Below are positions 2,633 to 55,100 of a stretch of 64,000 nucleotides of DNA, piece by piece. Origin of the DNA: a phage. Where the stretch lies: the sequence record PZ583738.1; one strand, 5' to 3'. The notes under the pieces are model-generated. The model had not been told where the DNA came from. It saw only the letters and a list, made by a program, of their open reading frames with translations, and ran no database searches. Numbering within the stretch: the stretch's first letter is position 1; each line of letters begins with the position of its first letter. The translations under genes were made by a program, and so were the position numbers.

Positions 2633-2763
2633 CCCTTTTTGCTTCAAATAAAATTGTGGTATAATGGTTCTAGACCCCTTTGTGACTATTAATTCCTTTC
2701 AGAGAAAGAAAGTATAATGGGTCTAATTTATAATGATATTTATAACATCAAAAGTGAGAGATT

Positions 2764-3771
2764 ATGTTTAAGAAATACAACAGCCTTGAAAATCACTATA
2801 ACAACAAGTTCATTGAAAAGATTCGCCTGCAAGGCTTCACCAGCGGTGAATGGGTAGCTCGCGAGAAGATTCATGGTACCAACTTTTCATTAATCATTGA
2901 ACAAGACAATGTGACATGTGCGAAACGCACTGGACCTATCCTGCCTGCAGAAGATTTCTATGGTTATGAAATTGTATTAAAGAATTATGCTGATTCTATT
3001 AAATCTGTGCAGAAACTTTTGCAGGATATTAATTACCAGGCATACCAGATTTATGGTGAGTTTGCCGGGGCAGGTATCCAGAAGAATGTGGATTACGGTG
3101 ATAAAGATTTTTATGTATTTGATATCCGCGTTACTAAAGAAGATGGTTTTGAATCCGTCCTGACTGACACCTTGATGGAAGCATTCTGTATTATCCATAA
3201 GTTTAAGGTTGCACCGCGCCTGGCTACAGGTAGTTTTGAAGAATTAATTAAGCTCCCTAATGACCTGGATTCTGTTGTCCCTGATTACAATTTTACAGTG
3301 GATAACGCAGGTTTGACTACAGCAAATACCACTGATTTTGATGCAAAGGCGGAAGGTAAAGTATTCACTGCTGAAGGATTTGTATTAAAACCTGATGTTC
3401 CTGCATGGTTACCTAACGGCGAGCGTGTAGCGATTAAATGTAAGAACTCTAAATTCAGTGAAAAGAAAAAGTCTGATAAGCCTATTAAGGCTGCAGTGGT
3501 TCTGAGCCAAAATGATATGGATTTACTGTGGAATTTCACTGATTATGTGACTGTTAACCGTATCAACAATGTTATCAGTAAAATTGGGGAAGTAACACCG
3601 AAGGATTTTGGAAAGGTAATGGGGTTAACAGTCCAAGATATTCTGGAAGAAGCGGGGCGCGAAGGTCTTGAATTATCCCTGACGGAAAATCCTGTTGAAG
3701 TTAAAAAGCAACTCATCACAAATGTAAGAGAAACATTAAGACATGTTTGGATTGCATTAGTTAGTGAATAA
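2764..3771 (+). CDS. rnlB: RNA ligase 2 (Rnl2 family)
   Basis: 335 aa; N-terminus [13 protein letters not shown]...[15 protein letters not shown] with nucleotidyltransferase motif I lysine (KIHG); matches recalled T4 Rnl2 along its length. Confidence 0.9.
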
Positions 3772-11399: not shown

Positions 11400-12083
11400 T
11401 TATTGTTTCCTATGATAATTTTCTATAAATTCTTGTAAATCACGTAAAGATATACTATTATTTATATCCTTCGAACGATTCAATTCCCACGGAATCATTT
11501 CAAGATTTTCAATGTGTCCAATGATTTCGGGGTCGATATTATTGTCAAATCCATACTTGATGGAAACCTTGTGGTCTAATTGATATGCACCTTCAATTCC
11601 AGCTCTTCCGGTCTTTTCAAAATTTGGGAGATTTTGCACTTCAGATTTAAAATTTAATGCGGTGAATTGACGAACTGCATATGCATATCGTTTGAATTCT
11701 CTTAATCTTGGATTATATCGTCCGTTTAATTCCCCTCGAGTATTTATATTGGGAATACCCTTTTTGGATTTGGAGATTTTTACGCCTTTAGATTTTCGAA
11801 TTTTTAGTCCATCTGGTGTGTTCCAAAATTCTTTACGCAAATCCGAATAAATTTCCCATCTATGGCTTTTGCAGAATTGGATATTGATGTTATTTATTTT
11901 ATCTCGTGTAACTGTATATTCAGCTCCACATTCATCACATTTACAATCAACTTTGACTCGGCATCCCAAATGTTCAATGTTGATTAAATGTGTTGTTCCT
12001 ACTGAAACATCATAACCTTGCTCACGCAAATTTGTCACATTTCTATTAGTTACATTAACGAGTTGTTTATCACTTACTATCAT
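11400..12083 (-). CDS. freestanding HNH homing endonuclease inserted between genes 18 and 19
   Basis: 227 aa; Cys-rich N-terminus (CKCDECG), HNH-type motif region AYQLDHKVSIKYGF...N; T4 has no gene at this junction. Confidence 0.75.
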   Translation of the reverse strand: MIVSDKQLVNVTNRNVTNLREQGYDVSVGTTHLINIEHLGCRVKVDCKCDECGAEYTVTRDKINNINIQFCKSHRWEIYSDLRKEFWNTPDGLKIRKSKGVKISKSKKGIPNINTRGELNGRYNPRLREFKRYAYAVRQFTALNFKSEVQNLPNFEKTGRAGIEGAYQLDHKVSIKYGFDNNIDPEIIGHIENLEMIPWELNRSKDINNSISLRDLQEFIENYHRKQ

Positions 12084-12198
12084 AGTAGCCTCAAATCGCG
12101 CACCAGAGCGATTCTGGGACGATTTTATCCGTGTTATGTATAAACACCTTACTTAAAGGTTGCGTGCTCTATAATCGTTTATAGGAGCTTTATGCTTT

Positions 12199-12206
12199 TA
12201 TTTATA
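12199..12206 (-). promoter_or_regulatory. late promoter TATAAATA upstream of the HNH endonuclease gene and gene 19
   Basis: Exact motif in the 18/HNH intergenic region. Confidence 0.45.
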
Positions 12207-12291
12207 ACACGGTATAATGGGTCTAATCTATTCCGTTAAGCAATTACACTCAACCATAATAGGTAAGAGGGGACTTTCATCCCCTAATTTA

Positions 12292-14271
12292 TTATTGTGG
12301 CCCAATCAGCTCATCGAAATTAGCACCGGTGCTTGTTGCTACGAAATTAAGCGTGATGTAGTTGATGCTGCGCGCCGGTTTGAAATAAATGCTGGCAACA
12401 AACTCATTTCGGTCTATGACCGACGGGGTGTTGTTGGTAGTATCACAAACCACACGACCTTCATAAATGCCACCGAGCGCACGAATACCATCCAAGTATT
12501 GAGAAGTTTCCATACGGAATGATGCACGAGTGAAGTTATCGTTAAGCTCAAACAGTTTATATTTGGATGCGTCACCGATATTTTTCTTCAGCATATTCGT
12601 AAGACGGCGAACGTTGATATGGTCCATCGGAGATGGAACTTTAGTTGCAGTCTTATCACCATACAGAACAAAACCATCACCACCTGCGAAACCAACAACC
12701 GGGTTGATAGCTTCCTGATACATGCGGTCACGTTGGGTCTGACGTGGTTCAACAGCCAATTTCAGAACGTTCAGAATCTGACCGCGGTTATAACCTGCCG
12801 GAGACATCCAAGGCTGAGAAACATCATCAGTACGAGCACACAGACCAGCCATATCAGCTGCCAGAGGAACCCAACGGTTAACGTCGTTATATTTATCATA
12901 CTGATATTTATAGTTGCCATCAATCGCTGCATAAGTCGTGCTGATATTCATGTTATCAGTATCAAATGCACCAGCACCTGTACGCCAGTCAATCAGGTTA
13001 TCCACTGCACGGGTCAGAGGAACGTTAACCAACAGACCTTTCGGCGGGGAAATGAATGCCAAGCAATCCTGACGTTCGTCAGCAATAGAAACTACGTGCT
13101 TCTGAACAGTGGAAGCGGTCGCATCACCTTCACCAGCACAAGCACCAGCGATAAGTAGGTTGATATGCAGAGCTTCACGGTCAGCGAACAGGTCCCAACC
13201 TTGCATCAAATCACCAGCGGTAATCTTATCGTTTGCAGAAATACCACCAGACAGATTGATGATACCACTGAAGCCTACAGGCCAGTTGCGAGATGTTGCA
13301 TAGATGTAGTTGGAAGTACCTTTTGCAAAGTAGTCATCCAGGTAAATGTTATTACCATAAACATCTTTTTCGCCCTGCTTAGTAGACAAAACAACGTTTT
13401 CGACGATTGCACCATCGCGGCGAACGATAATTGCATATTGGTTTTCGGTCTGAGGACCATAGTTAAACACTGCACGAGCTATAGAAGCGCGGGAACCACC
13501 ACCGGGGAAAATATCCAGATTTGCAGTTGCGCCTTTTTCAAATTCAGCTTTGGATACGATTTCAACTTCAAGAGTCGAACCAATTTCACCAGGATAAAGA
13601 GCAACAACACCCGGCATTACATATTTTGCCAATGATGCCTGGAATTCCAGAGAAGTAATTGCTTCTTCACTGTTTTCTGCTTCAGTCAACAGAATGCCAG
13701 AATCGGTAACAATTTTTCCGACAGTGATGGTACCAGATACACCGGAAGAAGTGGTCGTAACTTCTGCAGTCCATGCACTGCCCAAATTAGGATACTGATT
13801 AATAGTTTTAGCAAATGCAATAATCTTATTGGTAGGAATAAAGATTGCCAGAATTTTACCATCAACATCGACCTTGGTCACACGGCCAGCTGGTTCAACA
13901 ACAGTCTGGTTGTGTTTAACCTGAATAACATCACCGACAGCATAGTTTGTACCAGCAGTTACGATGGTAGTTTCAATATTGCCAGCAATAGGGGATGCGT
14001 TTTTAGCTTCGTCACGGTTAACAACACGTACAGTACGGAGGTCATTACCATATTGCAGGAAGTTCATCCCACTCATAAAGTAATCTGCTGTTTCATTATT
14101 CGGACCACCAAACAAATCAACAAGTTCAACTTCGTTTGTAATCTGAGTTACCTGGAAAGCTGGGCCCCACTGGAATTTACCAACCAGCGCCGCACGACCC
14201 GTCGCGTTACGAACAACAGTGCTTTGGACCGTTGTTTCTTTGAGCTCAATGCCCGGAGATAATAAAGCCAT
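12292..14271 (-). CDS. 18: tail sheath protein gp18
   Basis: 659 aa, size and position of T4 gp18. Confidence 0.9.
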   Translation of the reverse strand: MALLSPGIELKETTVQSTVVRNATGRAALVGKFQWGPAFQVTQITNEVELVDLFGGPNNETADYFMSGMNFLQYGNDLRTVRVVNRDEAKNASPIAGNIETTIVTAGTNYAVGDVIQVKHNQTVVEPAGRVTKVDVDGKILAIFIPTNKIIAFAKTINQYPNLGSAWTAEVTTTSSGVSGTITVGKIVTDSGILLTEAENSEEAITSLEFQASLAKYVMPGVVALYPGEIGSTLEVEIVSKAEFEKGATANLDIFPGGGSRASIARAVFNYGPQTENQYAIIVRRDGAIVENVVLSTKQGEKDVYGNNIYLDDYFAKGTSNYIYATSRNWPVGFSGIINLSGGISANDKITAGDLMQGWDLFADREALHINLLIAGACAGEGDATASTVQKHVVSIADERQDCLAFISPPKGLLVNVPLTRAVDNLIDWRTGAGAFDTDNMNISTTYAAIDGNYKYQYDKYNDVNRWVPLAADMAGLCARTDDVSQPWMSPAGYNRGQILNVLKLAVEPRQTQRDRMYQEAINPVVGFAGGDGFVLYGDKTATKVPSPMDHINVRRLTNMLKKNIGDASKYKLFELNDNFTRASFRMETSQYLDGIRALGGIYEGRVVCDTTNNTPSVIDRNEFVASIYFKPARSINYITLNFVATSTGANFDELIGPQ

Positions 14272-18943: not shown

Positions 18944-19881
18944 TAGCCCACCAATATAGGAGTCGGTGCATCCAGCAGGTCAAGTTCTTCACGAAGACGT
19001 TCTTTTTCCATACGAGCTTCTTCAATTAAACGAACACCATCAACTGTGACGCCACCTGGCATCATCATTCCCTGGTGTTTAGCTAATACGTTGCCATTAA
19101 CTTCCTTAACGAGCGCCGTGGCATAGTCTTTCACCCAACGGTTGTTGTATGCACCATCTTGAAGTCCAAGGTCCTCACCTGCTCTCATGCCGCTTATTCT
19201 GCGCGCCGGGTTATCCCACTGTGCACCAGCATTCCATGGATTATCACAATCGGCCGAAGCAAAACCATAGCCAGCTGTATTGCCTACCATTGAATCCACA
19301 CCGTTATATGATTTGGTATAAACTTCAATTACAATCACATCTCCCTGACGGAAGTTGCCCATAATTTTAAGTTGTTCAGTATCGTCATTATACCAGTAAT
19401 CTGGCAGCGGAACCATCAGGTCTTGCATCATTGAACGGTATTGCATAAGCTGTGTAAAATAACCAAGGTCTGCACCAAAAGCATTTGGTCCAAAGCTGTT
19501 ACATGAGCTACCCATTCCACCGTTAATCCCAGCAAGTCCCAGAACAAAATCTGTGAACCACGGATATGTGGCTTGCCCGTCCATCGAAGTTAATGAACCG
19601 ACGTTAGTACGAATAATCTGCGTTACTGCAAAAATATTACGGCCTTTTAAATCGAAAACACCATCGCGGAATTTCTGCTGTGAAACTTCATCATGGCCAA
19701 TATAAAAAGCCTGATAACCTTTGTTATAACCATTATAGTGATATTCGCCATATAATTCTAATGCGCGCTGGATGCAATCATAAACCTGTTCGGTCGTAAC
19801 TTCGATATTCGTGATTGGCGCACCAAGACGACGAAGGATTGCATCTTTTAATTGTTTCGGGTTGTATGATTCAGTTGCCAT
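18943..19881 (-). CDS. 13: neck protein gp13
   Basis: 312 aa in gene 13 position. Confidence 0.8.
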
Positions 19882-36491: not shown

Positions 36492-36944
36492 ATGGCATAC
36501 TCCGGGAAGTGGCAGCCAAAAAACGTTGCCAAGTACAAAGGAGACTGGAAGAAAATCACATACAGGTCAAATTGGGAAAAATTTGTATTTAATTGGTTAG
36601 ATAATCATCCAGATGTGATACAATGGGGCTCTGAGACCGTAATTATTCCATATTTCAGTAATGCGGATGGTAAAAAACGCAGATATTACATGGATATGTG
36701 GGTGAAATTCTCAAATGGACAACAGTTTTTCTTTGAGGTCAAACCCAAAAAGGAAACAAGGCCGCCAGCAAAACCAGTCAATACGACCGCTGCAAGTAAG
36801 AAGAGGTTTATGAACGAAATGTACACTTGGGCCGTTAACAAGGATAAGTGGAAAGCAGCGCAGGCCGTAGCCGATAAAATGGGCATCCAGTTTAGATTGA
36901 TTACTGAAGATGCGCTTAGAAAAATGGGATATAAGGGTTTATAA
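36492..36944 (+). CDS. 4: head completion protein gp4
   Basis: 150 aa, same as T4 gp4, divergent from gene 53. Confidence 0.85.
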   Translation: MAYSGKWQPKNVAKYKGDWKKITYRSNWEKFVFNWLDNHPDVIQWGSETVIIPYFSNADGKKRRYYMDMWVKFSNGQQFFFEVKPKKETRPPAKPVNTTAASKKRFMNEMYTWAVNKDKWKAAQAVADKMGIQFRLITEDALRKMGYKGL

Positions 36945-37672
36945 TGTACGATTGTTCAGATTTTAACATCACAAATGGCGAGATAGTGGGACAAGGCGAT
37001 TTTAATAAATCAAAAACTTTGATATTTGTAAAGTGCTTTATATGTGAAGAAACATGCAAATACAAAGCAACTGTTTTAAAGCATAAGTTAAAAACAAAAA
37101 GTTGGTGTTCTAATTGTAATTTAAAACGTTCTTATGGTGAAAGCAAATTAATATCTGAATTAGATGCAATCACAAGAATAAATTCCGTGAATCCATTGTA
37201 TAGTTTTGATAAATGGGATACCACATATTCAACTTTTACAAAATCAAAAGCCTATATAAAGTGTTCTACATGTTCAACCAGTTGGATTACAAATCTAAAC
37301 AACTTTACAACAAAAAACAAAGGATGTCCAAACTGTTGTCACAAAGGATTTAACGCAAAGAAACCTGCTATTGTTTATGTTAATAAAATAGAATATCCGG
37401 GCGGAACTGCTTTAAAGTATGGTATAACTTCCAATCATGATTTTAGATTGTGGCAGCAAAATCATTTTTCCAAATGCATTAGTTCCAAATTATATTATCG
37501 AGAATTTGAACTGGGTGCACAAGCCAAAATGTTAGAATCCGCAATATCTGTATTATATATAAAAGACAGAGGTTATTTGAATAAAGATATTATGGTCGAT
37601 GGCTATACAGAAACCTTACCATACTATTTAAAAAATGATTTGATTAATTTTATAGAAGGATGGAAAGGATGA
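36944..37672 (+). CDS. Cys-rich homing-endonuclease-like protein inserted between genes 4 and 2
   Basis: 242 aa; four CxxC pairs (zinc-ribbon-like) plus GIY-YIG-like [23 protein letters not shown]...R...H in the C-terminal half; not present at this junction in T4. Confidence 0.45.
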
Positions 37673-38496
37673 GTATTTTTACATTTATCAATGAATCTGC
37701 AGATAAACCAGGTCCGAAACCCAGTAAATCAGAACAACAATGGGTTGAAATAGGGGTTGAATTTTATACAGCAAAAGAAAAGGGAATGACCTCGAAGAAG
37801 TTTGCTGAAGAGAAAGGAATCAACTATTCGACCTTTACCAAAAGCATGTCAAGATATCATTCGAGAATTCAGACTGCTTATAAAGTATCCAAGCTCAAAA
37901 AGAAACCTGCCGGTAAACTTACGAAGGCTGAACGTCAGCTGATAATGGTGAATAGCTTTAGAAAGAGCATAAGAGATAAGATTGCTAACGAAGGCGCTGC
38001 AAGCAACACCAAATCTGCCAGATGGTTCGCTGAGACAATTAAGAAATCGGTTCGGGGCCACGTAACGGCTAAACCTCAACCGGGTAAGATTTATGCTTAT
38101 ATCTATGATGCAAAGCATAAGGATACTCTTCCGTACTGGGACAAATATCCGTTAATCATTTATCTTGGGCTAGGTAAGCACAATTTGATGTATGGTTTGA
38201 ACTTGCACTATATTCCACCGAAGGCACGTCAAGAGTTCCTTGAGGAACTTCTTAAGCAATATGCCAATACTCCTACGATTACGAACAAGACTCATCTGAA
38301 GATTGATTGGTCAAAAGTGAAGGGATTTAAAGGGGCTGACCAGATGATTAAAGCATATATACCTGGCAATATAAAAGGTACTATCACTGAAATCAAGCCC
38401 AGCGACTGGGCAAATGTGGTATTACTCCCCCTTCAGCAGTTTTTTTCAAAAGGCAAAAGATTTTCTTCACAGAAAGTATGGAGAAATTCACTTTGA
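37660..38496 (+). CDS. 2: DNA end protector protein gp2
   Basis: 278 aa in gene 2 position between genes 4 and 3. Confidence 0.8.
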
Positions 38497-39152
38497 ATTA
38501 TCAGTTTATATATTCATCGTTAATTGAAAGGGCCCGTAACAGGGTCCTGATTTCATATAAAGAATCTCATCACATCATTCCGAAATGTATGGGTGGTTCA
38601 AATGCTCCGGATAACTTAGTCGATTTGACTCCCGAGGAACATTATGTAGCCCATCAACTATTGGTTAAAATATATCCTACAAATCCAGGTTTAAGTTTTG
38701 CTGCCACATCTATGAGTCAGTCAAGCAAGTATTTGAAACGCAATAATAAATTATTTGGCTGGTTAAGACGCAGACACGCTGACAATATTTCTAAAAGCCA
38801 AACCGGTAAAGTTTACTTTAATAATGGTGTCAAATCGATAAAACTATTTCCATGGGAAGATGTTCCGGATGGGTTTGTCAAAGGAAGACATTACAGCCCA
38901 ACCAAGGGTACAAAACATTCTCGCAATAATGGACATTTTAAAAATAAAGAGATTCAGGACGAATTGAGAAAGCGCCGGTGGGAAAAAGATAGGCAAGAAA
39001 TGTGTAAAAACTTCGGAGTTGATACCATCGAGCAAGCTCGAGAGTTGGTCCTAGCATATAAAAAGGAATTGCATCCTCGATACTGGGTAAAGCCAATGTT
39101 GGAACGTTATCCGTTTATGACTAAGCTAAGACTTAACACATTAATAAAATAA
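38478..39152 (+). CDS. HNH homing endonuclease (Mob-like) inserted between genes 2 and 3
   Basis: 224 aa; canonical HNH region [30 protein letters not shown]. Confidence 0.8.
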
Positions 39153-39237
39153 TCTATTATCGGTCAGTGTTATTGGTAAGGACAAAAGGTCTAGAACCAT
39201 TATAACACTGATTGTTTTAAAGCAAACAAGGTGCACT

Positions 39238-42437: not shown

Positions 42438-42482
42438 GTGTACTTTTAAATGGGATAGTGTATAATTATCCCATCAACTACT
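42438..42482 (+). promoter_or_regulatory. early promoter / stem-loop cassette (PeSL-like)
   Basis: GTGTAC, 17 bp spacer, TATAAT inside gggatag...ttatccc inverted repeat, leader catcaactactgagg. Confidence 0.5.
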
Positions 42483-44219: not shown

Positions 44220-44293
44220 GGCCCTGTAGCTCAATTGGTTAGAGCATCCGGCTCATAACTGGCAGGTTTCCGGTTCAAGTCCGGATGGGGCCA
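44220..44293 (+). tRNA. tRNA with CAU anticodon (Met, or Ile if lysidine-modified)
   Basis: Hand-folded cloverleaf: acceptor ggccctg/tggggcc, D-arm gctc-aattggtta-gagc, anticodon loop cTCATAa, T-arm tccgg-TTCAAGT-ccgga, discriminator A. Confidence 0.8.
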
Positions 44294-44295
44294 CC

Positions 44296-44372
44296 CGGGG
44301 TGTAGCTCAATTGTATAGAGCAACGGTCTTCTAAACCGTAGGTTGTGGGTTAGAATCCCACCACCCCGACCA
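44296..44372 (+). tRNA. tRNA-Arg (anticodon UCU), CCA encoded
   Basis: Hand-folded cloverleaf: acceptor cggggtg/caccccg, D-arm gctc/gagc, anticodon stem acggt/accgt with loop cTTCTaa, T-arm gtggg-TTAGAAT-cccac, then ACCA. Confidence 0.85.
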
Positions 44373-55051: not shown

Positions 55052-55100
55052 TGTACATCTCCAAATGATAGGGTTATAATGACCCTATCAACTACGGAGA
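55051..55100 (+). promoter_or_regulatory. early promoter / stem-loop cassette upstream of denV (variant inverted repeat tagggt...accctat)
   Basis: ATGTAC, 18 bp spacer, TATAAT, leader atcaactacggag. Confidence 0.45.

Follow-up and report, generated by a model that had tools for sequence, protein, structure and literature searches.

Phage identity and gene layout

The window, i.e., the whole stretch of 64,000 nucleotides analysed here (PZ583738.1), follows the gene order of T4. It is assigned to Gaprivervirus, the group of T4-like coliphages that includes VR7, VR20, VR25, VR26, SP18, and P479, as three stretches compared with Gaprivervirus relatives are 87–100% identical. The gene for RNA ligase 2, rnlB (2764..3771, plus strand; Pfam RNA_ligase and T4_Rnl2_C), is followed by the late genes gp24 through gp53, which occupy approximately 3.8 to 36.5 kb on the minus strand and include gp18 (12292–14271, minus). 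Next to gp18 lies a gp19.1-like ORF (11400..12083, minus), for which only phrog_5104, a family of unknown function, and no Pfam match was found. After about 36.5 kb, the order on the plus strand is gp4, an endonuclease-like insert, gp2, an HNH insert, gp3, and gp1. The HNH-type homing endonuclease gene (38478..39152, plus; phrog_655) is an insertion relative to VR20. Thus gp2 is flanked on both sides by inserts, namely the phrog_681 endonuclease at 36944–37672 (plus) and the phrog_655 HNH gene; neither is present in VR20, and VR7 and VR25 have only the second.

Neither motA nor asiA lies within the 64-kb window. Both are encoded by VR25 (VR25_276 and VR25_268, respectively), a relative with 93–98% identity. 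A scan of the whole window against Rfam at gathering thresholds returned two tRNAs only, and none of the hits was located at the motif sites described below. These two adjacent tRNA genes (44220–44369, plus; RF00005, 62 and 74 bits) belong to the early region, and the early region of VR25 likewise contains two annotated tRNA genes, tRNA-Arg and tRNA-Met.

Occurrence of the motif

The original prediction described a recurring motif of the form GTATAATGG(G/T)TCTA(G/A) near rnlB, near gene 18, and in reverse orientation at about 39200. All of these sites were recovered. On the plus strand the motif starts at 2659, 2712, and 12212, and exact matches to GTATAATGGKTCTAR span 2659–2673 (copy 1), 2712–2726 (copy 2), and 12212–12226 (copy 3). 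Copy 4 is a one-mismatch version, TTATAATGGTTCTAG, at 39205–39191 on the minus strand. The genome-wide motif scan that had been suggested as a check was run over the window, and the frequency proved to be far above chance, with 0 exact matches to GTATAATGGKTCTAR when the window was shuffled 100 times with dinucleotide preservation. For the longer pattern TGCTT-N15-TATAATGGKTCTA, three matches in the window compare with 0 expected. A fifth match with two mismatches (19724–19738, minus) is situated inside a coding region without a MotA box and was treated as a chance occurrence. IMG/VR was searched with TATAATGGTTCTAG and at least 120 loci were obtained; a MotA box accompanies only seven of the matches listed, those being T4-like. 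A 14-mer is too short for collection-wide use.

A second repeated promoter-like motif, GGGATA(G/A)TGTATAATTATCCCAT, occurs in the early-gene region at 42452–42474 and 46487–46509 (both plus), with a related copy near 55060–55095 (plus). In this motif, TATAAT is enclosed by the inverted-repeat arms GGGATA and TATCCC and is preceded by GTGTAC or TTTACT. The sequence ATCAACTAC(T/G)GAGG follows in the first and third copies only, and the copy at 46487 has ACTGAGTTACC instead. Two exact-class copies compare with 0 expected, and the arrangement resembles the early-promoter/stem-loop "PeSL" cassettes of T4-type phages.

Probable promoter architecture

In T4, middle promoters consist of a MotA box, (a/t)(a/t)(a/t)TGCTTtA, located 12 ± 1 bp from the −10 element TAtaaT; about half of them contain TGn, and they have no −35 element (PMC2988021). 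The motif is probably the core of T4-type, MotA/AsiA-dependent middle promoters, a reading given a probability of roughly 85%. All four copies have a perfect TATAAT, and in three of the four TGCTT is found exactly 15 nt upstream of it, corresponding to a 10-nt MotA box and a 13-nt spacer. The MotA box agrees with the consensus at copies 1, 3, and 4 and is degenerate at copy 2. The spacers of copies 1 to 4 measure 13, 12, 13, and 13 nt, respectively, and all of them are within the T4 range. When the surroundings of copies 3 and 4 were scanned for the sigma-70 −35/−10 consensus, the sites were not called and no −35 hexamer was detected.

Copies 1 and 2 are located upstream of rnlB. Copy 1 (2637..2672, plus) comprises the MotA box TTTTGCTTCA at 2637–2646, a 13-nt spacer ending in TGG, the −10 element at 2660–2665, the discriminator GGTTCT, and a predicted start A at 2672. 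In copy 2 (2691..2725, plus), the degenerate box AATTCCTTTC at 2691–2700 has TCCTT in place of TGCTT and is followed by a 12-nt spacer, TATAAT at 2713–2718, GGGTCT, and a predicted start A at 2725. Copies 3 and 4 are candidate orphan middle promoters in antisense orientation. Copy 3 (12190..12225, plus) contains the MotA box TTATGCTTTT at 12190–12199, a 13-nt spacer, TATAAT at 12213–12218, GGGTCT, and a predicted start A at 12225. Copy 4 (39192..39227, minus) contains the box GTTTGCTTTA at 39227–39218, a 13-nt spacer ending in TGT, TATAAT at 39204–39199, GGTTCT, and a predicted start A at 39192.

The proposal of a promoter with a conserved start region can be made precise on this basis: the copies are predicted MotA-box/−10 middle promoters, with the final A of TCTA as the putative start base. 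We infer both the MotA dependence and the start positions for the window phage. The extended −10 element that had been ascribed to the motif as a whole is restricted to copies 1 (TGG, 2657–2659) and 4 (TGT), and copies 2 and 3 lack it. At the two copies with TGn, some MotA-independent extended −10 activity is therefore possible.

A further MotA-box/TATAAT candidate, TGCTTCAGCAATGGCTGAGTATAATAAGTTCCTAGAC, lies within an ORF at 49241–49290 (plus). It is followed by TTCCTAGAC, a loose echo of the motif, and its VR25 orthologue is at about 64900 (minus).

Counterparts in T4 and VR25

The T4 genome (NC_000866) was assembled and scanned for TATAATG(G/A)NTCTAAG(T/C)CC. Four copies were found, each with a MotA box, and two of them correspond to previously described promoters, PuvsY (published start 115371) and PnrdC.7 (published start 53325; both from Table 1, PMC2988021). 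Both starts coincide exactly with the last A of TCTA, so that the motif extends from −12 to +1. By homology to these starts, transcription in the window is predicted to begin at 2672, 2725, and 12225 on the plus strand and at 39192 on the minus strand. Like the window copies, PuvsY and PnrdC.7 have TGCTT near −30, a spacer of 12–13 bp, a perfect TATAAT, and the extended TATAATG(G/A)NTCT-A with the start at the final A. In the whole genome of VR25 the core is present six times, in all cases with a (T/C)GCTT box at the right distance. Three of these sites are upstream of uvsY, rnlB, and cd.3, and three are intergenic, between srd and modA, gp3 and gp2, and gp18 and gp19. A seventh variant precedes nrdC.6. 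The sites upstream of uvsY and nrdC.6/7 are orthologous in T4 and VR25.

The motif is made up of TATAAT, the start A and, between them, GG(G/T)TCT, a six-base discriminator that opens with G and is rich in pyrimidines. PuvsY and PnrdC.7 are the only ones of the 58 mapped T4 middle promoters with G(G/A)NTCT-A, and PnrdD+ comes close (TATAATGAATCTG). Most mapped T4 middle promoters have A/T-rich discriminators, hence the GGNTCT part is not explained by the general class and is only partly understood. When only candidates combining a strict box with a perfect TATAAT were counted, the discriminator was present in 5 of 12 for T4 and 7 of 20 for VR25. Promoters with G(G/A)NTCT-A thus appear to constitute a subfamily of the middle promoters, possibly the strongest ones. 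Region 1.2 of sigma reportedly contacts the discriminator, an observation attributed to Haugen et al. and Feklistov et al. in 2006. The GG at −6/−5, directly after the −10 element, plausibly adds such a contact, in which case the copies would be strong members of the class. Beyond the start base, the first 10–13 transcribed bases are similar within a genome and different between genomes; the consensus after +1 is lineage-specific, with AAGTCC(T)TCCATT in T4 versus AGACCTTT/AGGTCCTTTGG in Gaprivervirus. The conserved discriminator and first transcribed bases are one source of residual interest.

Two other ways of reading the same sequences were weighed against the middle promoter assignment. 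Ordinary host-type extended −10 (TGn/−10) promoters, used early by polymerase with unmodified sigma-70, would have TGCTT as an incidental feature only. TGn directly precedes TATAAT at copies 1 and 4, and TGn/−10 promoters are immune to inhibition by AsiA (PMC2988021). However, copies 2 and 3 are without TGn, TGCTT recurs at identical spacing in three of the four window copies, and a (T/C)GCTT box precedes all six VR25 and all four T4 copies. Moreover, PuvsY, the orthologue in T4, is a textbook case of MotA dependence, and little credence is given to the host-type explanation. The near-palindrome GGTTCTAGACC, which had been reported as part of the motif and as a potential operator, is present at copies 1 and 4 and missing from copies 2 and 3. 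As an operator, it would be bound by a dimeric phage regulator that shuts the promoters off, and at copy 1 five of the six pairs of GGTTCTAGACCC, which overlaps the start site, are indeed palindromic. Copies 2 and 3 (GGGTCTAAT) and the T4 orthologues, including PuvsY (GAATCTAAGTCC), do not show this symmetry, and the operator reading was rejected for this reason. Only GG(G/T)TCTA is common to all copies, and no candidate binding protein was identified, which leaves an operator highly improbable.

Predicted tandem promoters of rnlB

Copies 1 and 2 are predicted to be sense promoters for rnlB. Copy 1 is invariant from the MotA box to +5 in six Gapriverviruses. The −10 element of copy 2 varies among the relatives, being TATAGT in VR20 and SP18 and TATAGA in VR25, VR7, and UPEC01. 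Copy 2 is probably the weakest of the four, and together the two copies would form a strong-plus-weak tandem for rnlB. T4 rnlB is likewise served by a mapped middle promoter, albeit at a non-orthologous position: T4 PrnlB is situated inside gene 24.2 and has a different sequence, whereas the rnlB promoter of the window is intergenic.

The transcript predicted for promoter 1 starts with AGACCC (2672–2677), which is complementary to the promoter 2 discriminator, GGGUCU in RNA (2719–2724). Both segments are paired as a 5'-terminal stem in the minimum-free-energy fold, the overall stability of which is no better than that of shuffles. The predicted 5' regions of copy 1 (z −0.25) and copy 4 (z −0.67) do not fold clearly better than shuffled sequences.

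Antisense copies in the late-gene region

Copy 3 is located between the gp19.1-like ORF and gp18 and points into the 3' end of gp18. Downstream of it, a terminator scan and folding revealed a terminator-like hairpin, AGGGGACTTTCATCCCCT, followed by AATTTATTAT with a T-rich tail (12268..12295, plus; hairpin 12268–12285). The hairpin begins 43 nt past the predicted +1 at 12225, which predicts a non-coding RNA of approximately 70 nt. It has a folding energy of −19.1 kcal/mol (z −2.4) and is the only one that stands out from shuffles among the RNAs folded. The hairpin is present in VR26 and absent in P479 and VR25, where the copy 3 transcript would consequently run into gp18. No ORF was found downstream of either copy 3 or copy 4. 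An ORF of 101 aa at 12217–12522 was discarded as a candidate, as it starts upstream of the predicted +1 and overlaps gp18 in antisense.

A 36-bp island at 12190–12225, covering exactly the MotA box to +1, is 94% identical to P479, with unrelated sequence on both flanks. The spacer sequence is identical there, which shows true orthology. Close relatives have at least three versions of the gp19/gp18 intergenic region (11400–12290 in the window), and the 36-bp promoter is their sole constant. One version has no additional ORF, one has a gp19.1-like ORF left of the promoter, and one has a distinct gp19.1-like ORF on the right-hand side. RZ keeps the promoter of copy 3 and has the gp19.1-like ORF on the opposite side (locus L158, 393–998). 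Among 79 loci recovered with gp19, the gp18/gp19 copy occurs only in Gapriverviruses and one other clade (L186–L188), and there is no T4 counterpart of it.

Copy 4 is placed between the HNH gene and gp3, a position that corresponds to the gp2/gp3 intergenic region in phages lacking the HNH gene. It faces the HNH gene, 3' end first, and gp2 beyond it, and no terminator was found downstream. Each of the 15 T4-like loci recovered with gp3 (54–99% gp3 protein identity) has the gp2/gp3 antisense promoter, as do VR25 and T4; it occurs in all 17 genomes and loci checked and in all five gp3-identity groups sampled, T4 included. In T4 it is located at 75962–76000 (plus; TGCTTTATAACTGTTGGTGGTATAATGGGTCTA). 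A second antisense copy, between srd and modA, is shared by T4 (11859–11897, plus) and VR25, the two genomes examined for it. Both T4 sites, antisense to gene 2 (L135) and modA (L136), have a perfect MotA box and TATAAT on the "late" strand and PuvsY-like start regions. Neither T4 site is listed among the 58 middle promoters tabulated for T4 (PMC2988021), and these orthologues are accordingly candidate promoters even in T4. A published T4 dRNA-seq data set reports 22 antisense starts (bioRxiv 10.1101/2024.04.04.588121). The antisense RNA of the T4 gp3/gp2 site does not fold clearly better than shuffles (z −1.7).

Inserted genes next to the motif

Two copies adjoin inserted ORFs, and the motif had been proposed to be a homing-site remnant or cargo carried with endonuclease gene cassettes, with HNH genes beside copies 3 and 4. 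The assignment is correct for 38478–39152, a member of the phrog_655 homing-endonuclease family, and is unsupported for 11400–12083. Between the two proteins no similarity was detectable, and the latter is not a recognisable endonuclease. The HNH indel relative to VR20 comprises 38491–39149 of the window, which leaves the copy 4 promoter 42 bp outside, and VR20, without the HNH gene, has kept the promoter at the same intergenic site. P479 and VR25 lack the gp19.1-like ORF and likewise retain the motif in place, as does RZ with its relocated ORF. The third endonuclease-like insert (36944–37672) has no copy nearby, and the relative orientation of motif and ORF varies between sites. With promoters kept at the same spots in the absence of endonuclease genes, the association is taken to be coincidental, and the chance that the motif derives from homing cassettes is close to nil. 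The promoter is thus a stable landmark around which insertions come and go. A less direct connection would be that the promoters double as short homology blocks for insertion or replacement, as a middle-promoter version of the PeSL/PmSL "mobile regulatory cassettes" known from T4-type phages. PmSLs built on a TGCTT Mot box in vibriophage nt-1 provide a precedent (PMC4122927, Comeau 2014), and the window resembles PeSL/PmSL systems (Arbiol 2010; Comeau 2014) in having a repeated promoter motif beside indels. At copies 3 and 4, indel junctions between close relatives are indeed present: the gp19/gp18 region shares only the 36-bp promoter with P479 while both flanks are replaced, RZ has its extra ORF on the opposite side of that promoter, and the HNH indel ends 42 bp from copy 4. 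In contrast to PeSL/PmSL, there is no consistent stem-loop partner, the only hairpin being that of copy 3, which lies downstream and thus not in the PeSL position. Furthermore, the sites are part of the conserved late-gene core and not of hyperplastic regions. The copies are positionally orthologous across genera instead of shuffled, and the spacer sequences show that copies at the same locus are orthologous and were not exchanged between loci. Selection for promoter function accounts equally well for the island, and a role as homology blocks is considered unlikely.

Proposed mechanism and possible roles

On the middle promoter reading, AsiA would remodel region 4 of the host sigma-70 a few minutes into infection, as established for T4. 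MotA would then bind the TGCTT box near −30 and replace the −35 contact, sigma region 2 would read TATAAT, and RNA polymerase would start at the A seven bases downstream. Copies 1 and 2 would drive rnlB in this way. Copies 3 and 4 would yield non-coding RNAs antisense to late genes, the copy 3 RNA with a length of approximately 70 nt ending at the terminator-like hairpin just before gp18, and the copy 4 RNA running into the HNH gene and gp2.

The best guess for the antisense RNAs is that they damp the convergent genes or the mRNA of the neighbourhood ahead of the late phase. One possibility is that such RNAs are timed to hold back the expression of gp2, the HNH gene, gp18, or modA up to that point. 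A broader proposal holds that the orphan antisense members of the PuvsY-like subfamily are functional non-coding units, acting either as R-loop primers or as antisense transcripts timed to limit late or toxic genes, gp2 and modA among them; it is tentative and on balance doubtful. Neither a list of VR7 promoters nor work on "anti-late RNA" turned up in the literature searched.

The R-loop alternative in its specific form, in which R-loop transcripts of the PuvsY-like subfamily prime replication and the orphan antisense copies are unrecognised origins of the oriF/oriG type, has only a small chance of being correct. PuvsY, which carries the motif, is the promoter of T4 oriF. The oriG promoter P34i (TATAATGGTCCCA) is similar and resembles copies 3 and 4 as a middle promoter that fires against a late structural gene and has no ORF after it; it also shares the GG discriminator and the A start with the window copies. 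P34i differs in being located inside the coding sequence of late gene 34, whereas the window copies are intergenic, and in having demonstrated origin activity. For oriF and oriG, only a middle promoter and a downstream unwinding element are needed (PMC3016281). A predicted middle promoter is present at the antisense sites. As regards the unwinding element, which in such origins is A+T-rich and supports R-loop formation and autonomous replication, the GC and G contents of the family from +1 to +60 in T4 are within the range of the 58 mapped promoters. The first 40 nt past the T4 gp3/gp2 antisense start align in register with the corresponding stretch downstream of P34i at a score of 27, which was reached by 3 of 5000 shuffles and 14 of 5000 random T4 80-mers before correction for multiple pairs; once multiple comparisons are allowed for, the similarity is weak. 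The motif is also found at the ordinary mRNA promoters PnrdC.7, PnrdD+, rnlB, and cd.3, and the mapped T4 origins oriA and oriE are 3–5 kb away from the antisense sites. The two aligned T4 stretches (76006–76040, plus, and 153006–152968, minus, on the oriG side) have TTCC..ATTCAA..TCCA..TAGA..CAACAACAGAA in the same register.

Significance

The motif is a known kind of element, with the conserved orphan antisense promoters as a side result of modest interest. For annotation, four putative middle-mode start sites are placed in a Gaprivervirus, and a spurious link between a repeat motif and homing endonucleases is removed. Between gp2 and gp3, a wrong-way promoter persists from T4 through to distant relatives; another is retained between srd and modA. 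These antisense sites are concrete candidates for antisense transcription of late genes before the late phase.
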